Shown in pieces: positions 8,290 to 50,834 of a DNA stretch of 61,904 nucleotides. Made by a program: the position numbers and the translations under genes. How positions within the stretch are numbered: the stretch's first letter is position 1; every line of letters starts with the position of its first letter. The notes under the pieces are model-generated. The model saw only the letters and a list, made by a program, of their open reading frames with translations, ran no database searches and was not told where the DNA came from. The stretch comes from Blastocatellia bacterium (GTDB taxonomy: Bacteria > Acidobacteriota > Blastocatellia > RBC074): the NCBI GenBank assembly GCA_035275345.1, contig DATEMY010000434.1, positions 1-61,904 on the forward strand, given 5' to 3'.

Positions 8290-9789
8290 CTATTGAACCT
8301 GCAGCATCGCCGTCGTGTTCCTCTTTGGCACATGCCCGACCGGGATGCGGGTTACTTCTTTCATCGTTTTGATGTCTACCACAGACACGGAGTTCGATCC
8401 GGCGTTGGCCACGTAAGCGGTTTTGCTGTCGGGGGTGAGCGTCACCCAGTCGGGCGCCGCTCCCACGTCAGCGCCGCCCAAAAGCTTTAAGTCTGGGAGC
8501 GAGTACGCATAGAGCGCGCTATTCTGCCTGCTGGTGACGACCAGTGTCTTGCCATCGGCGGTGACGGCCATGCCATGGGAGATGTTTCCGCCTTCGTGAA
8601 TCTCAACTTTCCCGGGCGGCAAATGCGGAAGCTTGATCCGCGTGATCTCCTTGTGGGTTTGAAAATCCAACGCCGCGAACCCATGAAAATCGGACAACTG
8701 GAAGAATATTCGTTTGGTCGAGCCGTCGGCGTTCTGCTCGAAGGCCATTGGACGAACGCCCAGATCGAACTCCACCGACCACACAGGCTGCTCGGTCTGC
8801 GCATCAATCACGGTCATAATCTTCCCGACGATGGAGCCGGCGACCACGTACTTGCCGTCCGGCGTGACATAGGTGTTGTGCACGCCGCCTTTCGCCGGGA
8901 TGGTCTTGACTCGCTCTTGAGACGCCGTATCAATGACATCTACCGCGCCCGGCGCCTGGACGATCGCCACGTATACTCGCCGCCCATCGCGACTGATCGC
9001 GATATTGTTGGGACGGCCACTGAGCGGGACCCGTTTGGTCACCTGCAGCGTCCTCGCGTCAACGATGTCCAGCGTCTCAAGCGCCTCATCACTGAAGTAC
9101 ATTCGGCTTCCGTCCGGCGCCGCAGCGGCTCCATGGTTGGCTTCGATGTCCTTGATTTCCCCCACCACCTTGTTCGTGACGGGATCAATGAGGTGGACGT
9201 TGTCTCCGGCGCTGTTGGTCTGAATGATCCGGAGTTTAGTGTATGTGTCGGCCTTTGCCCCAAGCACCCAGGCAGCGAGCGTTCGCCACTCCGGGGCATT
9301 TTTGGAGTCCCAGTGTTTGCCGCCGGCGTGGAATTCGTCGCCGCCCGCCTCGGCCGCCAACAGGTGGATGAGCAGTTTGCTCTGCAGGTTGCCGGGAATC
9401 ACCCTCTGACGGACGATGTCAAAGTTCTGGCGGGATTGGTCTTCATCCCAGGCGTCGCTTCCGGGCGAGAGTGGCCTCAGGCGCATGGGAGTACTCGTAA
9501 TATGGCAACCGACGCAGCGGGCGTGACCCGGCCGCTTCGCCAGAAAGATGGGTTGTACCTGCGTTTTGAAAAACTCGAAATCCAACTGCGCCGACGCGGT
9601 CATCGGCGAAGGCGATTGCTGGACTGCGAACCCAATCGTCGTCAAGACCCAGGCGCCTGTCGCCAGAAACAGAAATCCTCGCCAGTTGAGAATCTTTGTT
9701 AGACACATAAATCCCCCCCGTGAGTCGCCGTTGCGGCTCTTTTGCTGTTGAGCGTATTGGCCGGGCGCTACTTTGCGAGTGATCTGCAT
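8290..9789 (-). CDS. Secreted cytochrome c (CxxCH) domain fused to a YVTN-type beta-propeller
   Basis: FFKTQVQPIFLAKRPGHARCVGCH heme-binding motif of PSCyt type, followed by repeated YVANAGSNSVSVVD / RVYVAIVQAPGAVDVID blades. The true start may be the internal Met at 9708, just before the hydrophobic signal segment. Confidence 0.8.
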   Translation of the reverse strand: MQITRKVAPGQYAQQQKSRNGDSRGGFMCLTKILNWRGFLFLATGAWVLTTIGFAVQQSPSPMTASAQLDFEFFKTQVQPIFLAKRPGHARCVGCHITSTPMRLRPLSPGSDAWDEDQSRQNFDIVRQRVIPGNLQSKLLIHLLAAEAGGDEFHAGGKHWDSKNAPEWRTLAAWVLGAKADTYTKLRIIQTNSAGDNVHLIDPVTNKVVGEIKDIEANHGAAAAPDGSRMYFSDEALETLDIVDARTLQVTKRVPLSGRPNNIAISRDGRRVYVAIVQAPGAVDVIDTASQERVKTIPAKGGVHNTYVTPDGKYVVAGSIVGKIMTVIDAQTEQPVWSVEFDLGVRPMAFEQNADGSTKRIFFQLSDFHGFAALDFQTHKEITRIKLPHLPPGKVEIHEGGNISHGMAVTADGKTLVVTSRQNSALYAYSLPDLKLLGGADVGAAPDWVTLTPDSKTAYVANAGSNSVSVVDIKTMKEVTRIPVGHVPKRNTTAMLQVQ

Positions 9790-10058
9790 GGCCGTGATCT
9801 CCTCTTACAAGGCAAAATGTTTGCAGAGCCGGTATTATTGAATCGTGTGAATGCGAGATGGCGCGGAGTATACGAGAGGCTCAGCATGCATGCAAAGGTT
9901 TTGCTCGCTCAACGGGCAGGTTTCATAGACCGCCATAAGTAGATAACAGTTTTTTCAAGGCAAAAGGTCAAAGGTTTGAAAGGCGCCAGGTCCTTTGACC
10001 TTATTGACCCTTTGACCATTTGCGTTAAAAAGTCTCCTCATAGCGAGTGCTCGAAACT

Positions 10059-37488: not shown

Positions 37489-39924
<2,436 letters not shown>

Positions 39925-40011: not shown

Positions 40012-42138
40012 ATGGGATTGCTTGATGTTTATCAAGGCCATCAGACGTGGACGGATTTTATCAGCGGCCAGAAGGCGTTTACCGCGCTTGAAGGATTATT
40101 AGCTCGTCGGATTGGGGACGCTACGACCGAAGAAAATCCCGGAGGGCTGTCGGTCGGGGTGACGAAGCGGGAACATCAGGTGGCGGTCGAGTCCGGGCTT
40201 GGGGCTTTGAATTTGGGACGCCTGCGCCACGTCAACGAGAACGCGGCGAGGTTGGAATTGGGAATTGAAAAGCTGGCGGGAGGTTTGGAGAGTCTCAAGG
40301 CCGATTTCAATTTGCTGCTGGGAGACATCGTCTGGCGTTTGGAGATGCAGCAGGAACCGCTCACGAACATCCTTGAAGAAATCCGTCTGGCCGAGTTCGA
40401 GCGCGAGGCCAGAGCTTATCGAACGCGCGCCGAGAGGGCTTATCTGAACGGCTGGTACGAAGAGGCGCTCGGCGATTATCTGGAAGCCGAAAAACGCAAC
40501 TACCCGGATTACACGGTTCATCGTTCAATCGCGCAGATCTACCTTTACAACATAGTCAATCCGCCGAAGGCCCTGGAATATTTCCTCAAAGCCGCCAAAT
40601 ACGCGCGGCCCAGCGATGTCGCTGGGGCGGCTGAGGCTCATTACTTCGCCGCCATAGTTTGCGTGATCGAGCGTCGGCTGGAACCCGCCCTCGAGCATTT
40701 GCGTCAGTCCACTCAACTCAACCCGAAACTCGCCGAAGCGCATTACCAGCAATCGTGCGTCGCCTCACTGCTGGGCGACGGCGAGCAGGCCGTCGCCAGT
40801 TTGGCCCAGGCCATAGAAGGCGACGCCCGATATTACGAACGCGCGAAGAGCGAAGCGGCCTTCGACCCGATTCGTTCGCGGGTTCAGGTTCTGCTCGACC
40901 AACTGATGCGCCCGGTCAGGGAGAAGATGGTCGAAGTCAAACAGGACGCGGCGCAATTGGACGGCTGTCTTATCGCGAGGGTTGCGGAAGAGGAGATCGC
41001 CGAGGCCTTTCATCAGGTCGAGCGCCAGGTGGCCGAATCTCCGACTTACCAGGCCGGCTTGCAGTCGCTCGAGACCCTTTCGCGGATCCAGCGCGAACTG
41101 CGCGAACTGCGCGACCGCTACTATAAACAATACGAGGTTAACCCGCGTGATTACGTTCGGTCGGTAGCCTTCAGCAACGACGGGCGGTTGCTGGCCTCGG
41201 GATTCCTTCAGGGCAATCTGCAGGTTTGGGAGGCCGGCTCGGGCGTCAAGCTTTACGCGCATTTGGCGCACCAGGCCAGCGTCACTTCGGTCGCTTTCAG
41301 CCCGAACAACCTGCTGCTGGCCACGGGCAGCCGCGACAACACGATCAAATTGTGGGAATCGGACACCGGCCAGGAGCTCCAGGTTCTGCGAGGGCACAAA
41401 GCCGAAGTGAGCTCCGTGGCCTTCAGTCCCGATGGCCAATGGCTCCTTTCTGCGAGTCACGACAAAACGATCAAAATCTGGCGAGTGATGACGGGGCGCG
41501 AAGCGCAAACTTTAGAAGGCCACACAATGCAGGTGACGGCGGCTGCCTTTACGCCCGACGGGCGGGCGATCGTTTCAGGGAGCTGGGACAAGACCATCAA
41601 AGTGTGGAACGTCTCGTCGGGATTGACGATACGAACCTTGACGGGACACACGAAGGGAGTCTCTTCGCTGGCCATCAGCCCCGTCTCCGGGGCCATCAGC
41701 CCCGTCTCCGGTCAGACCCCCGGTCAAAATGGATGCTGGCTGGCTTCGGGCGGCGAAGACGCGAAGGTCAAGCTCTGGGATTTGGAGCTTGGACGCGAAG
41801 TGCGGACTTTCAACGGACGTCGTAACAGCGTGACCTCCGTCGCATTCAGCCCCAACGGCGAGCTTCTGGCCTCCGGTTGTCTGGGGCAGGTGGTGATTTT
41901 GTGGAAGCTTTCCACGGGCGAAGTCGTCAAGCGGCTGAGATTCGAAAACATCAGTTACAACTCGGTTGCCTTCAGCCCGCAGGGACAATGGCTGGCGCTC
42001 GGCAACCGCGATCTGCAACTCTGGTTGAAGGCGATTTTGACTGAAGGGGAATTTGCCGAGATCAAGACGCCACACGGCGCTTTCCATTCGCCATTCGAGA
42101 TTCGCCATCTGTCATTCGATTTAACTGATGACGAATGA
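40012..42138 (+). CDS. TPR plus seven-bladed WD40 repeat protein with an uncharacterised N-terminal region
   Basis: The central region has TPR-like helices (AYLNGWYEEALGDYLEAEKRNP, AEAHYQQSC...). The C-terminal blades have the pattern VxSVAFSPDGxxLxSxSxDKTIKxW. Its 3' end overlaps the convergent AAA+ gene by 18 bp. Confidence 0.88.
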   Translation: MGLLDVYQGHQTWTDFISGQKAFTALEGLLARRIGDATTEENPGGLSVGVTKREHQVAVESGLGALNLGRLRHVNENAARLELGIEKLAGGLESLKADFNLLLGDIVWRLEMQQEPLTNILEEIRLAEFEREARAYRTRAERAYLNGWYEEALGDYLEAEKRNYPDYTVHRSIAQIYLYNIVNPPKALEYFLKAAKYARPSDVAGAAEAHYFAAIVCVIERRLEPALEHLRQSTQLNPKLAEAHYQQSCVASLLGDGEQAVASLAQAIEGDARYYERAKSEAAFDPIRSRVQVLLDQLMRPVREKMVEVKQDAAQLDGCLIARVAEEEIAEAFHQVERQVAESPTYQAGLQSLETLSRIQRELRELRDRYYKQYEVNPRDYVRSVAFSNDGRLLASGFLQGNLQVWEAGSGVKLYAHLAHQASVTSVAFSPNNLLLATGSRDNTIKLWESDTGQELQVLRGHKAEVSSVAFSPDGQWLLSASHDKTIKIWRVMTGREAQTLEGHTMQVTAAAFTPDGRAIVSGSWDKTIKVWNVSSGLTIRTLTGHTKGVSSLAISPVSGAISPVSGQTPGQNGCWLASGGEDAKVKLWDLELGREVRTFNGRRNSVTSVAFSPNGELLASGCLGQVVILWKLSTGEVVKRLRFENISYNSVAFSPQGQWLALGNRDLQLWLKAILTEGEFAEIKTPHGAFHSPFEIRHLSFDLTDDE

Positions 42139-43140
42139 TTTGCGTCCCATCATCCCGAGGCGCTCGCCCGGCGACAGGCGTGGAACCATGACCCTGAAGT
42201 TGAGAAAGTTCCACGGCGGCTCGTAGTTGACCAGTACCGCTCTGCCGGCCGCCAATTGTCCGGAGAGCATCAGATCGTAGAGTGGGAACTCCAGGAAGTT
42301 TCTGATCACGCGCTTGATCTGGCGCACCCTGTGGGTTGTGTCGTCCAGGCAGTGTCTGAGCAAAAAAGTTTTCGCCTCTTCCTCGATCCTGAAGCCGATC
42401 CCCGAGGTGGCCAGCTTTTGATCGACATCAGCGAGTTTGCTTTCCAACAGCGTGATGACGTCCTGCTCGTCAAGGCGTTCGAAGATCACTATCTCGTCAA
42501 TCCGGTTGACGAGGGAGGCGCCCAAGAGGTTATCAATCTCCTCCAAGACCACCATGCTTTGCCTCGGCTTCTCTTCCTCACCGCCGTTCTCGCCGTCCCC
42601 AAAGAACCCGATGGTTCGGCCCACCAGCTGATCGGTTTGCTTCTTCGACAAGTCGCCGGTCAGGATGATGAAAGTATTGCGGAGTGAAAAAATGTGGCCG
42701 ACCGTGTGGAGAACGCCGCGGTCAATGGAGGCGGCCAGATAGTCGCGAAAAACGGCAGGCGCTTTGTCTATCCTCTCGAATACCATGATGGAGAAAGGAG
42801 AAGGGCGGAACGGAGGAGTTACTTGCGAAAGCATTCTTCCGGCCATCAACTGTTCGCACAGGTTCGACTGCAAGTCGGAGGCTTGACCGAGAATCTGGCA
42901 ATTGACGTAGATCAGCTTGCGTTCATTCCCGAGCAAGACCTGGGCGAGCGCTTGAGCAAGATGCATTTTGCCCGAGCCGATCGGACCCGCGAAAAGAAGC
43001 GCCGCCAGCGGGCGACTCGAATCGGAATATCGGCCGTCGGCCAGAGCCAGCGTCACCGCCCGCGTCACGGCCGCTATGGCATACTCCTGCCCGACTACTT
43101 GCTCCTGAAGAGCCTGCATGAAATGACTTGAAAAGACCAT
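42121..43140 (-). CDS. Single-domain ClpA/ClpB D2-like AAA+ protein with non-canonical Walker motifs (cassette 1)
   Basis: LQEQVVGQEYAI...LLFAGPIGSGKMHLAQALA (GK-M in place of GK-T/S). IMVFERIDKA aligns with the ClpB LLDEIEKA. NTFIILTGDL, LVNRIDEIVIF, and a D2-small-like C-terminus. Confidence 0.8.
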   Translation of the reverse strand: MVFSSHFMQALQEQVVGQEYAIAAVTRAVTLALADGRYSDSSRPLAALLFAGPIGSGKMHLAQALAQVLLGNERKLIYVNCQILGQASDLQSNLCEQLMAGRMLSQVTPPFRPSPFSIMVFERIDKAPAVFRDYLAASIDRGVLHTVGHIFSLRNTFIILTGDLSKKQTDQLVGRTIGFFGDGENGGEEEKPRQSMVVLEEIDNLLGASLVNRIDEIVIFERLDEQDVITLLESKLADVDQKLATSGIGFRIEEEAKTFLLRHCLDDTTHRVRQIKRVIRNFLEFPLYDLMLSGQLAAGRAVLVNYEPPWNFLNFRVMVPRLSPGERLGMMGRKSFVIS

Positions 43141-43240
43141 ACAGCGCTTCAGCTTAAGGCGGCTTCCGGCTGGTTCAGGGAAGCGACACGGTCGGTTTTA
43201 GACCGTGGCCTCCCTGAACTGCCGTAGGGCCGAACGGGGC

Positions 43241-43864
43241 TTAGCAATTGATTCCAGGGATTGCCACCACTGGAGGACAGGGCAAAGCCATCTGGGGCAC
43301 ACCCACCTGTGGTCTCAGCGCCGGATGAATCTGGCTGACTGCCAGAGGCGGCGCCATGCAGGCCTGGGCCAGGGCGGCGGAGTAAGGATCGGTCACCTGA
43401 CCGGGCGCCACCCCGCACATTGCGGCCAATTGGATCGGGTCACACGCCTGCGGATTGATCAGCGGTCTGATCGGCAGCAGGCTCTGAGCAATTGGAGAAA
43501 CCTGCTGCGGAATCACCGCCCCGGTTACCGGATCAACGCACGTGACCGGAGTTCCATAGGGCGACGGTGGGCACCAGGCGACTTGCTGGAAGGGCGAGCC
43601 GATATGTCCAAGTGGGGATTGGAGCAGCGGCGCTACCTGCGGGATGATGTACGGGGAAATGCCGAATCCGGCTGCGTACGGAGAGACGCCGTATCCGGTT
43701 GTGTACGGACTGGCGCCGATTCCGCACTGCGCAGCGGCGATCGGGTTACACGCATAAGGATTCATGATTGGATTGATTCCTCCGAAAGCCGCGCCCGCGC
43801 CATATTGTGGCGGACAGTAGGCGACCGGCTGAAGAGGAGTAGTGAAATTCATTCTCGGGAACAT
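43241..43864 (-). CDS. Pro/Gly/Ala/Gln-rich low-complexity protein, Lys- and Glu-free, Cys-containing (cassette 1)
   Basis: GGAGG ribosome-binding site. MFPRMN start, PQYGAG..GGINP, SPY repeats, VDPVTGAVIPQQ and LPIRPLINP blocks, all conserved with the paralog at 46974-47621. No signal peptide is evident. Confidence 0.75.
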   Translation of the reverse strand: MFPRMNFTTPLQPVAYCPPQYGAGAAFGGINPIMNPYACNPIAAAQCGIGASPYTTGYGVSPYAAGFGISPYIIPQVAPLLQSPLGHIGSPFQQVAWCPPSPYGTPVTCVDPVTGAVIPQQVSPIAQSLLPIRPLINPQACDPIQLAAMCGVAPGQVTDPYSAALAQACMAPPLAVSQIHPALRPQVGVPQMALPCPPVVAIPGINC

Positions 43865-44025
43865 AACATAGCCTCCTAAGTTGCTTGAGTGTCTCGAAGA
43901 CCTCGGTTGACAATGACCGAGAGGCGCTCTCGCATGAGAGACACACCTCCCCCTCTCACTTCTTCAAGCGATTGTTGAAGCAAGATTCTACAAAGCATCG
44001 TTTGAAGGTTTTCCGGTGAACCACC

Positions 44026-44298
44026 TCAAAATCCTGGCACTCTCAAATACGGCGACATTCCCCAGGCGTATTGAACCATTGAATTCGCGTAGGGCGTCGA
44101 CGGCAGCGCGGACATCATTCCTGTCGTCGCGTAGGGCATCGCCGCGTTCTGCATCGGTCTGGCAGTCATCTCCGCGAACAACAGGTTGATCAATTCGTGT
44201 ATCTCTTGAAGCTTGTCCATTTCTTCGGGCGAGATCTGTGAGTTGGACATTTCATTGGGATGGTTAATTTGGTGTTGTGCTGGCGCAGCCCAAGCCAT
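44026..44298 (-). CDS. 90-aa protein: acidic helix plus Met/Pro/Tyr-rich tail (cassette 1)
   Basis: AGGAGG ribosome-binding site. SPEEMDKLQEIHELINLLFAEM, then PYATTGMM...YAWGMSPYLRVPGF. Strongly conserved with 47937-48209. Confidence 0.75.
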   Translation of the reverse strand: MAWAAPAQHQINHPNEMSNSQISPEEMDKLQEIHELINLLFAEMTARPMQNAAMPYATTGMMSALPSTPYANSMVQYAWGMSPYLRVPGF

Positions 44299-44342
44299 TG
44301 ATTTGCCTCCTTTCGGACAAATAAAAAGAAACAGTTAACATA

Positions 44343-44876
44343 CTACTCCTCCGATCTCCCGGCCCCTTCAACCTTAAGCTTGGGAATGGTGATCTGAAGA
44401 ATCCCGCTGACAAATTTATTTTTCATTCTTTCCGGCTGGACATTACTGGGCAGTGGAAAGAGCCGTTCGAAACTGCCGTAGGCGCGTTCCGAACTGTGAT
44501 AGGCGCTATCCTCACTCGCTTTTTTGAAACGCCGCATCCCGCGGATTGTGAGGATGTTGTTGGTCTGGGTCACCTTGACGTCTTCCTGTCCCAGCCCAGG
44601 CAACTCCAAATTGATCAGGTAGGCGTCCTGAGTCTCGCAAACCTCCGCCGCCGGCGTCCAGGCGGGGGACTTCGACAATCGCCACGAGATGCCGCTGTTA
44701 ATCAAGCACATGTTCAGTTGATCGATTTCACTTTGAACCAGCGTTACGGGATTGATTCCCTTAGGCAATGGATAGCGGGGTTTTTTTATATCAATCTCCG
44801 GAGCCGGAAGCCCGGTCATTTGCTCGAAGACATCTTTGACATCCGTCAGAACCTGGTCATAAGAGTACATCCTCAT
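44343..44876 (-). CDS. Hsp20/alpha-crystallin family small heat-shock protein with a conserved ~85-aa N-terminal extension (cassette 1)
   Basis: Alpha-crystallin domain AWTPAAEVCETQDAYLINLELPGLGQEDVKVTQTNNILTIRG...ERAYGSFERLFPLPSNV...GILQITIPK. The start is set at MRMYSY (GGAGAG ribosome-binding site, agrees with the paralog) rather than the track start at 44897. Confidence 0.9.
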   Translation of the reverse strand: MRMYSYDQVLTDVKDVFEQMTGLPAPEIDIKKPRYPLPKGINPVTLVQSEIDQLNMCLINSGISWRLSKSPAWTPAAEVCETQDAYLINLELPGLGQEDVKVTQTNNILTIRGMRRFKKASEDSAYHSSERAYGSFERLFPLPSNVQPERMKNKFVSGILQITIPKLKVEGAGRSEE

Positions 44877-45299
44877 AAGCTCTCTCCGTATTTTCATTTT
44901 TTCTTCGTTAGTATCTCAACCGGCTCGCACGAATGTACGGCGAATCGGTTCGTTCGCCGCGGGGCTTTCGTAAGTCTGATCGCGACAGCGCGCCGAAGCG
45001 GCTCGCCAGGCGATGATATGCGATTGGCCTTGATTATTGATCATAGGCGCTCTTGTTCGCGCCTTGCACAGGCGTAAGTATCAGCATTTCCTGTTCCTAA
45101 TTCGGAGATCAGCGAGGTTCTCAAGCAAAATTGCCCTAAATTCGGAGAAATAAGTAATCACAACGCAATGTCAATACATACGGATCGCGGCGCGAGGGCT
45201 AAGCGTTTGTTTGCTGTGATGGGAAGGGGTACGGCGATGTTTTAAGGAACGTTTTGCCGACATACAACCACTGTATGGCGGATGTTCATTCGATGATCG

Positions 45300-45728
45300 T
45301 TAGACAGGCTTTCGATTTGGGCGCCGGTTGTAAACCATGAGCGCCACCGTGTACAGGCACGCCAGACCGATAACAATAAGTGCGCCCCAGAATGAAACCG
45401 GAAGCAGATATGATGCGTTGCTCCCGTCGGTGGCGATCAGGAAGACCCACTCGTCGAGCGCCATCCCCATCCCGACGCCGAAAATCCAGCGCGCCAGATC
45501 GAGCCTGCGCGTCGCCGCGTCAAAAGTCGCCAACGGAATCCCTCCCGCAACGATCAGCAGCAGTCCCGTAAAGAGATGGTGAATGTTATAGCTCCCGACA
45601 TTCAGATCGGTATTGGGCGAAATATGCAGATAGGCGCGCAATAGCGCGAAGGTCAGGCTCATTGAACAGAGCACAATGATCCCGTTCTTATTAATTGCGC
45701 GGGAGGGTGTGGTCGAGTGGTTTTGCAT
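45300..45728 (-). CDS. Small integral membrane protein (about 4 TM segments)
   Basis: Hydrophobic segments IIVLCSMSLTFALL, LFTGLLLIVAGGIPLA, IFGVGMGMAL and WGALIVIGLACLYTVALMV. Lies 16 nt downstream of the cassette-2 AAA+ gene. No counterpart in cassette 1. Confidence 0.65.
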   Translation of the reverse strand: MQNHSTTPSRAINKNGIIVLCSMSLTFALLRAYLHISPNTDLNVGSYNIHHLFTGLLLIVAGGIPLATFDAATRRLDLARWIFGVGMGMALDEWVFLIATDGSNASYLLPVSFWGALIVIGLACLYTVALMVYNRRPNRKPV

Positions 45729-45744
45729 TGTCTTTCCGCGCCTT

Positions 45745-46755
45745 TCATCTCATTGCGAAATGCCCGCCAGGCGCCAAGCGGGGGATCATGACTCGGAAAT
45801 CGAGAAAATTCCGCGGCGGCTCGTGTTTGACCAGCGCCGCCATGCCGGATGTCAATCGCCCGGAGAGCATCAGATCGGAGAGCGGAAACACCAGGTGGTT
45901 TCTAACCGCGCGCTTGATCTGCCGCGCCCTATGCGTCGGATCGTTCAGGCACTGCCTGAGCAAAAAGGATTTCGCCCCCTCCTCGATCCTGAAGCCGATG
46001 CCCGATGAGGCCAGCTTTCGAGCTATCTCGGATAGTTTGCGTTCCAGCAGCGTGATCACGTTCTGCTCGTTGAGGCGCTCAAAAATCACGATCTCGTCAA
46101 TGCGGTTGACGAGAGTGGCGCCTAACAGGTTATCAATCTCTTCCATTAACACCAAGTGCTCCCGCGGCGCCTCCTGGGCGTCGCTCTCATCATCACTAAA
46201 AAAGCCTATGGTTCTGCCTACCAACTGATCAGTCTGCTTCTTTGACAGGTCGCTGGTCAGAATGATGAAAGTGTTGCGGAGTGAAAACATGCAGCCAAGC
46301 GAGTAGAGAACTCCGCGGTCAATCGCTGCGGCCAGATAATCGCGAAAGACGGGCGGCGCCTTCTCAATCTTCTCGAACGCCAGTATGGAGAAAGGAAAAG
46401 GGGTGAACGGAGGGGTTATTTGGGAAAGCATGCTTCCGGCCATCAACTGTTCGTGTAAGCTCGACTCCGCGTATAAGTTCGACTGCGAGTTCGAATGTTT
46501 ACTGAGGATTTGGCAATTGACATAGATCAATTTTCGATCGTCGCCGAGCAGAACTCGGGCGAGCGCTTTAGCGACATGCATTTTGCCCGAATTTGTTGGT
46601 CCTGCGAACAGGAGCGTTGCGAGCGGGTTGTTGGAATTGGAGTTGCGCCCATCGGCCAGAGCCAGCGTAACAGCTCTTGCTAAAGCCGCCACAGCATACT
46701 CGCGCCCTACCATTTGCTCCTGAAGAGCCTGCATTAGATGACTTGAAAAGACCAT
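45745..46755 (-). CDS. Single-domain ClpA/ClpB D2-like AAA+ protein with non-canonical Walker motifs (cassette 2)
   Basis: Paralog of 42121-43140: FAGPTNSGKMHVAKALA, ILAFEKIEKA, NTFIILTSDL, LVNRIDEIVIF. The start is set at MVFSS by alignment with the paralog. The 14-codon extension in the track starts at a TTG. Confidence 0.8.
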   Translation of the reverse strand: MVFSSHLMQALQEQMVGREYAVAALARAVTLALADGRNSNSNNPLATLLFAGPTNSGKMHVAKALARVLLGDDRKLIYVNCQILSKHSNSQSNLYAESSLHEQLMAGSMLSQITPPFTPFPFSILAFEKIEKAPPVFRDYLAAAIDRGVLYSLGCMFSLRNTFIILTSDLSKKQTDQLVGRTIGFFSDDESDAQEAPREHLVLMEEIDNLLGATLVNRIDEIVIFERLNEQNVITLLERKLSEIARKLASSGIGFRIEEGAKSFLLRQCLNDPTHRARQIKRAVRNHLVFPLSDLMLSGRLTSGMAALVKHEPPRNFLDFRVMIPRLAPGGHFAMR

Positions 46756-46973
46756 TTCATACGCCGTTTCTCCAGCGGAGGTTGGTGGATCGTTCAATCC
46801 AAGCCTATCGGCCCAAGCCTATCGCCGCCGCGCATAGGTTGGGCGAGAACGATCCACCGGCCATCGCCGGAGGGATTAAGGGAGGCTGAAGGCCCAGGCC
46901 CTCAGCCTCTCGTCACAAGTCTCCACAGGCTAGACCGTGTGTTCTCCCTGAGCCGCTGGGAAGCGCGGCGCGC

Positions 46974-47621
46974 CTAGAAAGGGATTCCGGCAGTGGGTGA
47001 ACCATACTGCGTCGCCGCGTTCCATACCGCCATCTGAAACGCGTCGGGCTGATGGGGAGTGATCAGCGGCCTGATCGGTAGATGAGTTTGGGCCAGCAGG
47101 GAAGACTGCTGGGCGATCAACGCTCCGGTGATCGGGTCAACGCCCAGAACCGGACCGTTGAGAGGCGTCGGAGCGCCCCATCCGAAGACTTGTTGCGGCG
47201 CCGGATATCCGAACGCTTGCTGTGGGAAGGTGTGCAAACTGAGCGGGACGCCAGGTTGACCGATCCCGCCTCCGAATTGCTGCCCCCAACCCTGATGCAA
47301 GAGCGGGCTGATCCCCTGGCTGAACGGATTGCCCCAGCCGCCATATGGGCTTTGCCCGATCGCCGAATGTTGAGTATGCGGCGGCAGGAGCGCCGGGTTG
47401 GTCGTCGGGATTTGCGCGACCAGTACGGGATGAACATATTGGGTCTGTCCCAACGCGTATGGATTTACCCCGATTCCGCTCAGTCCCGCTATCGGGTTAA
47501 TCGGATACGGAAGCGCCTGGTGTGGAACCATCGGATTGATTCCTCCGAACCCCACGCCATATTGGGGAAAGCCGAAGGCAAACGTTTGAAATGGATTCGT
47601 GATATTCATTCTTGGGAACAT
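46974..47621 (-). CDS. Pro/Gly/Gln-rich low-complexity protein, Lys-, Glu- and Cys-free (cassette 2)
   Basis: AGGAG ribosome-binding site. MFPRMN, PQYGVGFGGINP, VDPITGALIAQQ and LPIRPLITP blocks shared with 43241-43864. Confidence 0.75.
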   Translation of the reverse strand: MFPRMNITNPFQTFAFGFPQYGVGFGGINPMVPHQALPYPINPIAGLSGIGVNPYALGQTQYVHPVLVAQIPTTNPALLPPHTQHSAIGQSPYGGWGNPFSQGISPLLHQGWGQQFGGGIGQPGVPLSLHTFPQQAFGYPAPQQVFGWGAPTPLNGPVLGVDPITGALIAQQSSLLAQTHLPIRPLITPHQPDAFQMAVWNAATQYGSPTAGIPF

Positions 47622-47936
47622 AAAAAAATCTCCTAAAGTTTCATGAGTGTCTCAATGACCTCAGTTAATCGTGATCAAGAGGCGCGTTGGCGCATTCTCG
47701 CGCGCGCGCCTCTCCCTCTCACTTCTCCATGCGATTGTTGAAGCGAGGGTCGACACTAAAGAATGAGACGGAATGCGGACATCCCGACAGCGTCACGACC
47801 GTAAGGAGAGGCTCAATTTTCAGCCTGCCTCACGGGTGTGGGCTACTGACGCGGCGTCGCATCCCCATCCCAGCGATTGTTGTGTGTGACGCGTAAGTTC
47901 TGGCGCTTACGCATGATTGATTCGGCGTAAACCGCC

Positions 47937-48209
47937 CTAGAAGCCTGGCGTCCTCAAATAAGGCGCGATTCCCCAGGCATAATGGAACAGTGGCTGTGTG
48001 TAGGGCGCCGATGGCATCGCGGGCATCATCCCTGTCGTCGTGTAGGGCAATGCCGCGCTCTGCGGCGATCTGGCGGCTAGTTCTGCGAACAATAGATTGA
48101 TCAGCTCGTGTATCTCCTGAAGCTTCTCCATCTCCTCTTGTGAGATCTGTGGGCCGTTCATCTCGTTGGGATTACTGGTTTGGTATTGCGCTGGCGCTGC
48201 AAAAGTCAT
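47937..48209 (-). CDS. 90-aa protein: acidic helix plus Met/Pro/Tyr-rich tail (cassette 2)
   Basis: The ATG at 48209 is preceded by AGGAGG. MTFAAPAQYQ...SQEEMEKLQEIHELINLLFAEL...YAWGIAPYLRTPGF. Confidence 0.75.
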   Translation of the reverse strand: MTFAAPAQYQTSNPNEMNGPQISQEEMEKLQEIHELINLLFAELAARSPQSAALPYTTTGMMPAMPSAPYTQPLFHYAWGIAPYLRTPGF

Positions 48210-48246
48210 TATTTGCCTCCTTCTGAACAAAGAAATAATTCATGGG

Positions 48247-48780
48247 TTAATCCTCTGACCTTCCTGTCCCATTAGCCTTGGCCTTGGGGATGATGATCTG
48301 AAGGATTCCATTGATAAATTTATATTTCATCCTCTCAGGTTGGGTATTGCTCGGTAGTGGAAAGAGCCGCTCGAACGCCCCGTAGATGCGCTCTGAGCTG
48401 TGATAGACGGCCTCTTCAGTCACTTTCTTGAAACGCCGCGCGCCGCGCACCGTGAGTATGTTATTGGCTTGTGTAACCTTGACATCTTCCTGGCCCAGTC
48501 CAGGCAGTTCCAGATTGACCGTATAAGCGTCCTGGGTCTCGTATATTTCCGAGGCCGGCGCCCACGCGGGCGACTTCGCCAACCGAGACGAGATGCCGCT
48601 GTTGATCAGGCACATATTGAGCTGATTGATTTCGCTCTGTACCAGCGTTATCGGATTGACCCCCTTAGGCAGTGGGTAACGTGGTCTTTTGATGTCGATC
48701 TCCGGAGCCGGAAGACCGGTGAGCTGCTCATACACATCTTTGGCGTCTGTTAAAACCTGGTCATAAGAATACATTCTCAT
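48247..48780 (-). CDS. Hsp20/alpha-crystallin family small heat-shock protein (cassette 2)
   Basis: Close paralog of 44343-44876: AWAPASEIYETQDAYTVNLELPGLGQEDVKVTQANNILTVRG...ERIYGAFERLFPLP. GGAGGG ribosome-binding site. Confidence 0.9.
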   Translation of the reverse strand: MRMYSYDQVLTDAKDVYEQLTGLPAPEIDIKRPRYPLPKGVNPITLVQSEINQLNMCLINSGISSRLAKSPAWAPASEIYETQDAYTVNLELPGLGQEDVKVTQANNILTVRGARRFKKVTEEAVYHSSERIYGAFERLFPLPSNTQPERMKYKFINGILQIIIPKAKANGTGRSED

Positions 48781-49268
48781 AAGCCCTCCAATATTTCATT
48801 TTCGATTCTTCGTCAGAATCCCAACCGGCCCGCGCGAATATGCTGCGAATCGGTTAATCGGCAGCAAGTTTTCGTGAGTCTGATCACACGTCAGCTATGA
48901 ATAGACTCGCTCACTATAGCTTGCGATGGCATACGCCCATCATTGAGGATCGTTGTTTGAAACATCAACGATCGGTTTATATTATTTTTTTGTAGACGCC
49001 ATTGACCTACCGCTTTACCTAATCGGAATTCCTCGCATTTCCCGTTCCTCTATTCGAAGATGGGCAAATAAACTCGAAGAGCCAAGTGATCACAACGGCT
49101 TGTCAATTCAATCGGAAAAAAGCGCGGATAAGTCGGTTGATGACATCGAAGGAAAAGGATACGACGATGATGTAAAAAGGTAATGTTGAAACTAGACACA
49201 CTGCGAGGCAAGTTCATTCAATCATCGATCGCCTTAATGTAGCGAGAAAAATGGGCGCCTCGATTGCA

Positions 49269-49323
49269 ATGAGACGGAAGGATGAGACAGGGGAAATGAG
49301 ACAGAGGAAATGAGACAGGGGAA
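49269..49323. repeat. Tandem direct repeat, 4 units of ATGAGAC(A/G)G(G/A)GGAA (13-14 nt)
   Basis: ATGAGACGGAAGG / ATGAGACAGGGGAA / ATGAGACAGAGGAA / ATGAGACAGGGGAA. The word is related to the arms of the hairpins at 21898 and 39935, but no complementary arm lies nearby. Confidence 0.8.
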
Positions 49324-49373
49324 ATCCGATATAAAAAGTTGTGATAAAATTTGTGAATGCATAAGCCGATTGC

Positions 49374-49538
49374 TTGACAGCTTTTTGACGGCTCTGTTAT
49401 AAAGTCTGCGAAATTTAAATATGAACGTGGCGATTTAGGGCGACTTGCTCCACGTAAAAAGACTGCTAAAGAGCCGCTGGGATTCCAGAGAGATTCAACG
49501 AACCCTGCGCACTCTTCAGGCGCGGGGTTTTTGATTTT
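49374..49538 (+). promoter_or_regulatory. Promoter plus short leader ending in an intrinsic terminator (candidate attenuator, riboswitch or small RNA) upstream of the transsulfuration genes
   Basis: TTGACA at 49374-49379, an 18-nt spacer, then TATAAA at 49398-49403. The stem AACCCTGCGC / GCGCGGGGTT (one G-U pair) is followed by TTTGATTTT, ending at 49538. Confidence 0.45.
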
Positions 49539-49604
49539 CCGCTCCTTTGAGATTCTCGCCTTCCAATCGCCATGCGAAACAAAATGAAAACCTCTGGGGA
49601 AGTT

Positions 49605-49641
49605 ATGAATGGGACTTATAAGTCTTATAAGTCCCATTCAT
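49605..49641. repeat. Perfect 18-nt-arm palindrome just upstream of the cystathionine synthase-like gene
   Basis: ATGAATGGGACTTATAAG t CTTATAAGTCCCATTCAT. It contains CTTATAAGT twice in tandem. Confidence 0.85.
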
Positions 49642-49673
49642 AAGGCTCACGAGAATTTTCGGAGGAAACAGCG

Positions 49674-50834
49674 ATGGCGACTGCGGATTATCAATTTCTC
49701 GAAACGATATCATTGCATGGCGGAACGACGCCCGATCCGACGACCGGCGCGATGCTAACGCCGATATATCAGACCACAACCTACAGGCAGCCGGCGGTCG
49801 GAGAGCACAAAGGCTACACCTACAGCCGTTCGGGGAATCCGACCGTGACCGCGCTCGAAGGCCGTCTGGCGGCGATTGAGGGCGCGGAGTTCGCCACGGC
49901 TTATGTAACCGGGCTGGCGGCGACGACAGTCTTGTGCCTGGCGCTGCTCAAAGCCGGCGACAGAGTCGTGTTGTCACAGGCGGTTTATGGCGGCACAGTG
50001 AGACTCTTGAAACAGGTGCTCGCTCAATTCGGGGTCGAATCTGATTTCATCGATACATCCGACTCTGCCGCGCTCGTCAAGGCGCTGGAAGAGCCGGCGA
50101 AGTTTCTCTTCATCGAAACGCCCGCGAATCCTACTTTGAAATTGACCGACATCGAATTGGCCGCGCATCTGTCGAAAGACGCGGGAGCGTTGTTGGTGGT
50201 TGACAACACTCTGCTGACGCCGGCGCTGCAGCGCCCGCTCGATCTGGGCGCAGACATCGTTCTGCATTCCACGACGAAATTCATCGAAGGCCACAACGCG
50301 ACGGTCGGTGGATCGTTGATTACGCGTGACGCCGAATTGCACGAGAAACTGGCCTTCGTTCGCAACGCCATCGGCGCGATCCAGGCGGCCTTCCCCGCGT
50401 GGCTGACGTTACAGGGGGTCAAGACTTTGCCGTTGCGAATGGCGCAGCATTCGGCCAATGCGCTGCGGGTCGCCGAATTCCTGGAATCGCACCCGCGCGT
50501 CGAATGGATCGCCTATCCCGGCCTCGAATCGTTCCCGCAATATGAATTGGCGAAACGACAGCAAACTTCCGGCGGCGCGTTGCTTGCGTTCGAGGTCGAA
50601 GGCGGCGTCGAAGCCGGCGTGCGGTTAATGAATTCGGTCAAGCTCTGTTCGCTGGCCGAAAACCTGGGCGCGGCGGAAACGCTGATCACTCATCCAGTCT
50701 CGATGACGCATGGAGACGTGCCGCCGGAGCAGCGGGCCGCCGCCGGCATCACCGACGGGCTGGTGCGCCTCTCGGTCGGTTTGGAAAACCCTGACGATTT
50801 GATCGCCGATCTCGACCAGGCTTTGAAGCGATAA
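49674..50834 (+). CDS. Cys/Met-metabolism PLP-dependent enzyme (cystathionine gamma-synthase/gamma-lyase-like)
   Basis: YSRSGNPT motif, the PLP-lysine context HSTTKFIEGH, and the C-terminal LVRLSVGLE. Confidence 0.9.
   Translation: MATADYQFLETISLHGGTTPDPTTGAMLTPIYQTTTYRQPAVGEHKGYTYSRSGNPTVTALEGRLAAIEGAEFATAYVTGLAATTVLCLALLKAGDRVVLSQAVYGGTVRLLKQVLAQFGVESDFIDTSDSAALVKALEEPAKFLFIETPANPTLKLTDIELAAHLSKDAGALLVVDNTLLTPALQRPLDLGADIVLHSTTKFIEGHNATVGGSLITRDAELHEKLAFVRNAIGAIQAAFPAWLTLQGVKTLPLRMAQHSANALRVAEFLESHPRVEWIAYPGLESFPQYELAKRQQTSGGALLAFEVEGGVEAGVRLMNSVKLCSLAENLGAAETLITHPVSMTHGDVPPEQRAAAGITDGLVRLSVGLENPDDLIADLDQALKR

Follow-up and report, generated by a model that had tools for sequence, protein, structure and literature searches.

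A tandemly duplicated Blastocatellia operon encodes stand-alone ClpB-NBD2-like AAA+ proteins that have lost canonical catalytic residues and may act as nucleotide-gated partners of a small heat-shock protein

Introduction

AAA+ motors are usually recognised by their invariant catalytic residues. Here we describe two neighbouring AAA+ genes in which several of these residues have been replaced. They lie on a 61,904-nucleotide stretch of DNA from a Blastocatellia bacterium (Acidobacteriota; GenBank assembly GCA_035275345.1, contig DATEMY010000434.1, positions 1 to 61,904; hereafter the window). A first-pass annotation, made from the letters of the DNA, had flagged the interval 42121-46797, which spans both genes, for the unusual motif residues that the two predicted ClpB-like proteins have in common. 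Do such genes record decay, or a state that selection maintains? And if the latter, what could an unfoldase-type module still do without its catalytic residues? We find that the degenerate AAA+ feature is real and is maintained by selection; the function that we propose for it, a nucleotide-gated holder or scaffold, is one that we infer from the sequence.

Results

A four-gene cassette, tandemly duplicated

Both AAA+ genes are encoded on the minus strand, each as the last gene of a four-gene cassette that is present in two tandem copies (A and B). Upstream of the AAA+ gene, each cassette encodes a small heat-shock protein (sHSP), a small protein and a low-complexity protein. The features are as follows.

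42121-43140, minus strand: AAA+ copy 1 of cassette A, 339 aa, stand-alone ClpB-NBD2-like, of the 'M-E-R-D' type
45745-46755 from its ATG (open reading frame extending to a TTG at 46797), minus strand: AAA+ copy 2 of cassette B, 336 aa, of the 'M-E-K-D' type
43241-43864, minus strand: low-complexity protein A, 207 aa, P/A/G/Q-rich, 2.9% charged residues
46974-47621, minus strand: low-complexity protein B, 215 aa, 1.9% charged residues
44026-44298, minus strand: small protein A, 90 aa, with a KLQEIHELINLL helix and a P/A/M/Y-rich tail
47937-48230, minus strand: small protein B, likely start at 48209
44343-44897, minus strand: sHSP A (HSP20 domain), likely start at 44876
48247-48780, minus strand: sHSP B (HSP20), assigned by profile matches
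45300-45728, minus strand: predicted membrane protein of 142 aa between the cassettes, syntenic in the crown-clade loci described below
44898-45299, minus strand: conserved region of ~400 nt upstream of sHSP A, with an invariant GGAAC-N5-ATGC (sigma-54-like) block
48781-49240, minus strand: conserved region upstream of cassette B, with conserved blocks as in cassette A

The two AAA+ copies are 72% identical. No third copy occurs within the window, where only these two were found, and there is no active paralogue in the cassette or in the window. For copy 2 the ATG at 46755, which has GGAGAA ahead of it, is the most likely start, in preference to the TTG at 46797. The small proteins of the two cassettes measure 90-97 aa. 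The gene order HSP20, small protein, low-complexity protein, AAA+ is kept in every locus that we examined, in the crown as well as in the basal clades of the family, and the closest AAA+ homologues carry the source names of Blastocatellia, Blastocatellales or Acidobacteria metagenome-assembled genomes (MAGs). The cassette is a four-gene operon specific to Blastocatellia-type Acidobacteriota.

Additional genes were seen in some basal-clade loci: an ANTAR-domain protein gene immediately precedes the sHSP gene in L001, L002 and L003 (5201-5827 in L001/L002), and in L090 an epoxide-hydrolase-like gene (8765-9925) is inserted between the low-complexity and AAA+ genes.

Each AAA+ protein is a single module of the NBD2 type

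Both copies score above the gathering threshold of Pfam AAA_2 (46.3 and 45.0 bits for copies 1 and 2, against 27) and, in their C-terminal part, above that of ClpB_D2-small (38.6 and 38.3 bits, against 21.9). The ClpB, ClpA, ClpK, ClpG and ClpV models are matched by both copies over the last ~290 positions only, and the scores remain far under the equivalog cut-offs for ClpB, ClpA, ClpK and ClpG; for the ClpB equivalog TIGR03346, the 119.8 and 117.9 bits compare with a cut-off of 1232 and the match is confined to model positions ~558-853. Each copy is a single module that lacks the N-domain, the first nucleotide-binding domain (NBD1) and the M-domain. The best PDB sequence matches are to the second nucleotide-binding domain (NBD2) of ClpC1/ClpC and ClpB, with E values from 1e-31 to 1e-27, and the AlphaFold2 (AF2) model of copy 1, at a mean confidence score (pLDDT) of 84.4, is structurally closest to T. 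thermophilus ClpB NBD2. The Pfam scores, the partial matches to ClpB, ClpA and ClpK and the match in fold bear out the first-pass annotation in its view of both proteins as single ClpB-D2-like modules, and ClpB_D2-small, above its gathering score in both copies, does the same for the D2-small-like C-terminus proposed there.

The same annotation had drawn an analogy to eukaryotic torsins. The Pfam Torsin profile PF06309 gives 14.9 and 13.8 bits, under its threshold of 27 and over an N-terminal stretch only, and no torsin chains are among the PDB sequence matches at E ≤ 0.001. By sequence homology, the AAA+ family is a relative of Clp/Hsp100 NBD2, not of torsin.

One further profile match points in another direction. 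A C-terminal stretch gives a partial hit to the DolB model of PADLOC (41.6 bits, E 2e-11), which would make these proteins DolB-like ClpB relatives of the anti-phage system Dodola. The match covers generic Clp D2 and small-domain positions, however, and no DolA or other PADLOC defence model is matched among the neighbours. The partners are an sHSP and low-complexity proteins, and the locus keeps a stable chromosomal synteny; we consider a role in defence very improbable.

Catalytic residues are replaced, and nucleotide-contacting residues kept

Which residues have changed? We took the motif register from three independent alignments, namely phmmer alignment to ClpC/ClpB NBD2, a motif tabulation of the homologues, and a family hidden Markov model (HMM) aligned with 150 library representatives, mostly ordinary full-length Clp ATPases. 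Residue roles follow a study of ClpB NBD2 (Walker A K601/T602, Walker B D667/E668, sensor-1 N709, sensor-2 R806; PMC3940203). The motifs read as follows.

42964-42987, minus strand: copy 1 Walker A, GPIGSGKM (residues 52-59), against GPTGVGKT in ClpC; Lys kept, Mg-ligand Thr replaced by Met
46579-46602, minus strand: copy 2 Walker A, GPTNSGKM; Lys kept, Thr replaced by Met
42760-42786, minus strand: copy 1 Walker B, MVFERIDKA (residues 119-127), against ILFDEIEKA in ClpC; Asp replaced by Glu-122, catalytic Glu by Arg-123
46357-46383, minus strand: copy 2 Walker B, LAFEKIEKA; Asp replaced by Glu, catalytic Glu by Lys
42652-42660, minus strand: copy 1 sensor-1, TGD (LTGD against MTSN in ClpC); Asn replaced by Asp-163
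46249-46257, minus strand: copy 2 sensor-1, TSD; Asn replaced by Asp
42481-42507, minus strand: copy 1 Arg-finger segment, NRIDEIVIF (NRIDE against NRVDD in ClpC); Arg-213 kept
46081-46107, minus strand: copy 2 Arg-finger segment, NRIDEIVIF; Arg kept
42310-42333, minus strand: copy 1 sensor-2 segment, HRVRQIKR (HRVRQI against YGARPL in ClpC); Arg-273 kept, Gly replaced by Arg-271
45910-45933, minus strand: copy 2 sensor-2 segment, HRARQIKR; GAR replaced by RAR
42838-42855, minus strand: copy 1 pore-loop position, EQLMAG, aligned with PGYVGH in ClpC; Tyr replaced by Leu

Three of the initial motif assignments agree with the sequence and with the residue alignment to ClpC/ClpB NBD2: the Met in place of the Walker A Thr, the Asp of TGD/TSD in place of the sensor-1 Asn, and the retained NRIDEIVIF, whose Arg aligns with that of ClpC NRVD. 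The Walker B assignment, which had the Asp changed to Phe and the Glu retained, was shifted by one residue. In the family HMM, the hLFDEIEKA of Clp ATPases falls on hVFE[E/K/R]IDKA in the same register throughout, and the Phe of VFE aligns with the Phe/Leu ahead of the Walker B motif, not with the Asp; all three alignments give Asp to Glu and catalytic Glu to Arg/Lys. Since the catalytic Glu is the residue that has been lost, the mechanistic reading moves from an odd Mg site to the absence of a catalytic base. Two deviations come in addition to those listed at first. The pore-loop Tyr is gone, GYVG having become QLMA in a segment that forms a continuous helix in the AF2 model, and the sensor-2 GAR has become R[VA]R. 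Among the hallmarks of Clp/Hsp100 NBD2, both copies retain AAA_2, D2-small, the Arg finger and the sensor-2 Arg, and both lack GxxxxGK[T/S], the Walker B catalytic Glu, the sensor-1 Asn/Thr and the aromatic pore loop.

The deviations arose stepwise and are fixed in one crown clade

Are these replacements a property of the whole family? A homologue search returned 167 proteins at E ≤ 1e-10; the best 120 of the 167 were used, all of them single modules of ~330 aa. Motifs were counted over 115 sequences, 53 in a crown clade (both window copies included) and 62 in others. In a neighbour-joining (NJ) tree rooted on ClpB-type sequences, the states at the residue after the Walker A Lys, at Walker B and at sensor-1 form a nested, stepwise series. 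ClpB-type sequences have T / D-E / N, and the basal clades of the family have T / E-E / (T or D), still with an unaltered GAR. P0057, P0060 and P0067 form a small group in between, with T or A / E-K / D, and the crown clade has M/I/F / E-K/R / D, plus R-x-R at sensor-2. Copies 1 and 2 fall into separate subclades of the tree, M-E-R and M-E-K. An aromatic residue is often found in the basal clades a few residues past the former pore-loop Tyr position; none lies near that position in the 53 crown sequences.

Within the crown clade the residue after the Walker A Lys is Met in 46 sequences, Ile in four, Phe in two and Thr in one. Walker B has the first Glu in 51 of 53, followed by Lys (39), Arg (13) or Ser (1). 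The sensor-1 Asp and the Arg finger are present in 53 of 53, and the Walker A Lys and sensor-2 Arg are unchanged across all 115 sequences. Arg-271, two residues before the sensor-2 Arg, occurs in all 53 crown sequences, as against Gly in 62 of 62 sequences of the other clades. The P-loop residues P53, G57 and K58 are invariant in the crown clade and G52 is present in 52 of 53; conservation of at least 95% is reached by only 37% of all columns.

The first-pass annotation had named homologues with canonical motifs in other genomes as evidence that would count against it. Such homologues exist, as ~60 more distant proteins encoded in the same four-gene cassette have GKT and Glu-Glu. The deviations are therefore derived and clade-specific rather than a property of the family, but in the crown clade they are fixed. 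Judged by these sequences, they were stably fixed once acquired, in one Blastocatellia crown clade. The NRIDE pattern also matches every ClpB and ClpC, and in a scan of GTDB species representatives one true family locus (L007) was found among the matches listed.

Could the crown proteins nevertheless be working ATPases that use a non-canonical catalytic set? The sensor-1 Asp or a residue from a partner would serve as base, Arg/Lys-123 would stabilise the transition state, and a cofactor would activate the enzyme, as LAP1/LULL1 does for torsin. The torsin precedent, an apparently inactive Clp-clade module activated in trans (PMC4999309), speaks for this, as do three partner genes that are always co-encoded, the strictly kept Arg finger, sensor-2 Arg and Walker A Lys, and the sensor-1 Asp, found in every crown sequence; an Arg finger mainly serves hydrolysis. 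Against it, the Mg-ligand Thr, catalytic Glu, sensor-1 Asn and pore-loop aromatic are all gone, and a basic residue occupies the position of the catalytic base. Moreover, the sensor-1 Asp already stands beside the catalytic Glu in the basal GKT/Glu-Glu clades. It predates the loss of the Glu and was not acquired as its replacement, which weakens the case for a cofactor-activated ATPase; we regard it as unlikely, though it is the main rival of the reading that we propose below.

At the other extreme, the module may have given up nucleotide altogether and become a structural scaffold, its P-loop empty or occupied by another anion, that serves the sHSP and the low-complexity protein as an adaptor. 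The pocket has been reshaped by the hydrophobic residue that follows the Walker A Lys (Met, Ile or Phe) and by two extra basic residues, and degeneration has recurred in the family: in a second lineage, eroded independently (P0068, P0071, P0073, P0074, P0080), the Lys is followed by Ile and the Arg finger is replaced by His. However, G52, P53, G57, K58, the Arg finger and the sensor-2 Arg are near-invariant in the crown clade, and such invariance, when only 37% of the columns are conserved, is hard to account for without a bound phosphate ligand. A nucleotide-free scaffold appears distinctly improbable to us.

A further set of stand-alone ClpB-D2-like proteins of ~330-410 aa was noted among the relatives (P0134, P0137, P0141, P0142, P0145, P0147, P0148, P0162, P0163, P0173, P0185, P0193, P0207). 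These have a GTGKTH P-loop and a TSNLC/TSSLC sensor-1, several have GAW or GAH for GAR, and in place of the catalytic Glu they have Q, Y, R, N, H, D or G. Going by these sequences, single-module D2 relatives seem to have lost this Glu repeatedly.

The degenerate state is under purifying selection

The ratio of non-synonymous to synonymous substitution (dN/dS) between copies 1 and 2 is 0.18 at dS 0.79, and 0.16-0.19 between the AAA+ genes and their orthologue in a Blastocatellales MAG (L004). The crown-clade AAA+ is under purifying selection, and its deviant residues are a maintained state, not decay. That several canonical motifs are gone at once might be taken for a sign of decaying pseudogenes or for an artefact of alignment. 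Yet the open reading frames are intact at these dN/dS values, the same residues are fixed in 53 sequences, three independent alignments agree, the AF2 model is confident (pLDDT 84), and the cassette occurs in metatranscriptome assemblies; decay and artefact are effectively refuted. The initial argument for a selected state had been that two paralogues share the same deviations, which alone is expected from common descent. The state itself is upheld on other grounds: dN/dS of 0.18, fixation in 53 sequences, retention of the tandem cassettes and presence in metatranscriptomes.

Three related loci have one cassette (L004, L087 and L088), in a syntenic arrangement of 142-aa gene, cassette, convergent WD40 gene and permease; L088 is without the 142-aa gene. 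A fourth (L093), ~83% identical to the window, has the same tandem arrangement, and its upstream AAA+ is 87% identical to copy 2. As this locus keeps the tandem cassettes, the duplication is older than the organism studied here and both copies have been retained. The pair is a tandem duplicate of the whole cassette, and both AAA+ copies inherited the degenerate state. An obligatory heteromer of one active and one inactive paralogue was considered and rejected, as the degenerate state affects both copies and the cassette is single in related genomes.

The WD40-repeat gene of the window (708 aa, 40012-42138, plus strand) is convergent with AAA+ copy 1, with which it shares an overlap of 18 nt at the 3' end of the latter. 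This pairing is kept in the crown-clade loci L004, L088 and L093 (truncated in L087) and is absent from basal-clade loci. Elsewhere the window contains about nine paralogous open reading frames of ~800-830 aa (3309-30312 and 37489-39924); of these, 37489-39924 was examined and proved, like its syntenic counterparts, to be a duplicated MacB_PCD/FtsX permease, as expected for Acidobacteriota. Together with the source names of the closest AAA+ homologues, these permeases assign the window to Blastocatellia-type Acidobacteriota.

The partner proteins

The sHSPs have an unusually conserved N-terminal region of ~75 residues. The small proteins, with their KLQEIHELINLL helix and P/A/M/Y tail, have homologues in 111 clusters, whose source names read only 'hypothetical protein'. 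The low-complexity proteins are 200-330 aa long, with 2-3% charged residues (D/E/K/R) and ~64% P/G/Q/N/A/Y/F/S. They are highly divergent (31% mean column identity) except for an invariant QxxLPIRPL motif, and they also keep an N-terminal MF(P)R. Their length and repeats vary freely, with GGFGANPYSPQV repeats in L006 and GYGQP repeats in L004/L005. Searched against Pfam, NCBIfam and PADLOC, the partner proteins gave no match beyond HSP20, and our literature searches found no description of a Blastocatellia sHSP/AAA+ system.

I/L-P-I/V motifs occur in sHSP ligands. QxxLPIRPL is a plausible docking site, to judge from its conservation, and by analogy one might speculate that it docks into the sHSP beta4/beta8 groove.

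Transcription and conserved non-coding regions

Contigs from four soil metatranscriptomes fall on cassette A. By the crude measure of assembler depth, they reach up to 258 on the low-complexity gene, tens on the small-protein and sHSP genes and 0-3 on the AAA+ gene, and contig depth is 10- to 100-fold higher at 43102-44436 than at 42121-43101, within the AAA+ gene. So uneven a profile speaks for RNA and against contaminating DNA. It suggests that the AAA+ protein is made at a much lower level than its presumed client, and fits an abundant client or structural protein accompanied by a low-copy regulator. On this profile, the transcript may also be attenuated or processed in the ~100-nt spacer that separates the low-complexity gene from the AAA+ gene (43141-43240), and that has the sequence CAGGGAG..CACGGTCTA in common with the spacer of cassette B. 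Promoter and terminator scans returned counts under the shuffled expectation and do not explain the drop in depth from the low-complexity gene to the AAA+ gene.

A conserved non-coding region of ~400 nt precedes each sHSP gene, in the window and in L004, L087 and L093. It contains an invariant block, AGGAACnGGAAATGCTG, with a GG-N10-GC spacing like that of a sigma-54 -24/-12 promoter, and a TTGACA..CCGTTGTGATTAC block. From its sequence, the region could be a promoter followed by a long structured leader. A search of 41500-49800 against Rfam gave nothing at the gathering score, and matches to mir-1791 and HOTTIP were dismissed as chance.

Upstream of cassette B, a sub-threshold match to the SAM_alpha (SAM-II) riboswitch was seen at 49417-49489 on the plus strand (27.5 bits against 36, E 0.005). 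It lies directly upstream of a gene for a pyridoxal-phosphate-dependent enzyme of Cys/Met metabolism (49674-50834), and metatranscriptome contigs end nearby.

Discussion

What might such a protein do? We propose that each of the two genes encodes a stand-alone ClpB/ClpC NBD2-type module that has become a pseudo-ATPase, 'trap'-like by nature, and works with the sHSP as a holder or scaffold gated by nucleotide. Given the residues that remain, we hold this to be somewhat more probable than its contrary. The P-loop Gly and Lys, the Arg finger and the sensor-2 Arg are kept; the Mg-ligand Thr (Ile/Phe in relatives), the catalytic Glu, the sensor-1 Asn and the pore-loop Tyr are replaced. Such a protein would still bind ATP or ADP and, speculatively, might do so independently of Mg, given the two basic side chains now at the phosphate site. 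It would probably oligomerise in a nucleotide-dependent manner, sensing nucleotide across its subunit interfaces. Hydrolysis would be very slow or absent, and polypeptides would not be threaded. Together with its dedicated sHSP, it would hold or scaffold the low-complexity protein under nucleotide control, so that the assembly state of this client would be controlled rather than forcibly disaggregated.

Studies of related AAA+ proteins provide the background for this proposal. The Walker B Glu activates the attacking water, and the sensor-1 mutation N709A lowers the ATPase activity of ClpB NBD2 ~30-fold with nucleotide binding unaffected (PMC3940203). Glu-to-Ala variants of ClpB/Hsp104 Walker B bind ATP without hydrolysis and hold substrate (PMC5447042), and non-hydrolysing degenerate AAA+ domains are found in nature in PEX1/PEX6 D1 (PMC6862443).

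Several points weigh against the trap-like holder. Nucleotide binding, oligomerisation and loss of hydrolysis are all read from residues, and the role of general base could in principle be taken over by the sensor-1 Asp. The pore-loop Tyr, by which ClpB trap variants grip their substrate, is absent here, so any holding needs another surface. The link between the AAA+ and the low-complexity protein as its client comes from conserved gene order only. The NJ tree has no support values, and contig depth is a poor measure of expression.

How does the family compare with known systems? With ClpB/ClpC/Hsp104 NBD2 it shares the fold, the domain order, the P-loop Lys, the NRID Arg finger, the sensor-2 Arg and D2-small; it differs in the absence of N-domain, NBD1 and M-domain and in its Walker, sensor-1, GAR and pore-loop changes. 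Human CLPB/Skd3 resembles it in having only an NBD2-type Hsp100 module, and gives weak PDB matches (E ~5e-5). Skd3, an active disaggregase, has an ankyrin-repeat domain and is canonical in its Walker, sensor and pore-loop residues. The sHsp20-ClpK/ClpG heat-resistance loci likewise encode an sHSP next to a Clp/Hsp100-family ATPase, but our proteins score 95 and 90 bits where the cut-offs are 1900. Both ClpK and ClpG are disaggregases of full length, with two rings and canonical motifs, and we know of no low-complexity or small protein partners described for their loci.

A non-Ser/Thr residue after the Walker A Lys is, we take it, common to torsin and to the present AAA+ family. Torsins, too, are single Clp-clade (HCLR) modules with no pore-loop consensus (PMC4999309). 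They depend on LAP1/LULL1 for the Arg finger that they lack, keep the Walker B Glu (E171), have Gly-Cys-Lys at sensor-2 and probably do not thread; in the present family, conversely, the Arg finger and sensor-2 Arg are kept and the Glu is lost, a mirror image (PMC4999309). The comparison first drawn with torsins is therefore a loose one: it holds for the single Clp-clade module, the residue after the Walker A Lys and the missing pore loop, but not for the profile score, which is under threshold, nor for the residue pattern, which is reversed.

By analogy, the functionally nearest precedents would be the engineered ClpB traps and the PEX1/PEX6 D1 domains. NSF D2 is another degenerate, non-hydrolysing AAA+ domain. 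In the engineered ClpB/Hsp104 traps (E279A/E678A), as here, the catalytic Glu is removed and the nucleotide-binding residues are kept (PMC5447042); here, unlike in the traps, the change is natural, leads to a basic residue and is accompanied by loss of the Mg-ligand Thr and the pore-loop Tyr. PEX1/PEX6 D1 is similar in that an AAA+ fold remains under selection though hydrolysis residues are missing (PMC6862443). Degenerate type II ATPase domains of this kind are probably nucleotide-stabilised assembly platforms. These D1 domains, however, belong to one polypeptide with an active motor ring, whereas the present module stands alone.

Taking the trap-like holder one step further, the operon might be a self-contained system for a prion-like or condensate-forming protein, in which the sHSP and the small adaptor set the material state and the pseudo-ATPase is an ATP/ADP sensor rather than a motor. 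Possibly, assembly would then be locked or released during the drying and rewetting of soil. We rate this extended scenario as rather unlikely; if true, the family records an evolutionary conversion from motor to sensor.

The family, in an operon that is itself conserved, offers a natural series, from the near-canonical GKT/Glu-Glu through GKT/Glu-Lys to the fully degenerate GKM/Glu-Lys/Arg with R-x-R and no pore-loop aromatic, with the nucleotide-contacting residues fixed at every stage, and a compact test case for how an unfoldase-type module becomes a nucleotide-binding non-motor. A stand-alone protein of ~335 aa should be easy to express. The expressed operon around the low-complexity protein is arguably a more novel object than the AAA+ pair itself, and this unannotated operon could bear on proteostasis or stress handling in soil Blastocatellia-type Acidobacteriota, a major and poorly studied group.

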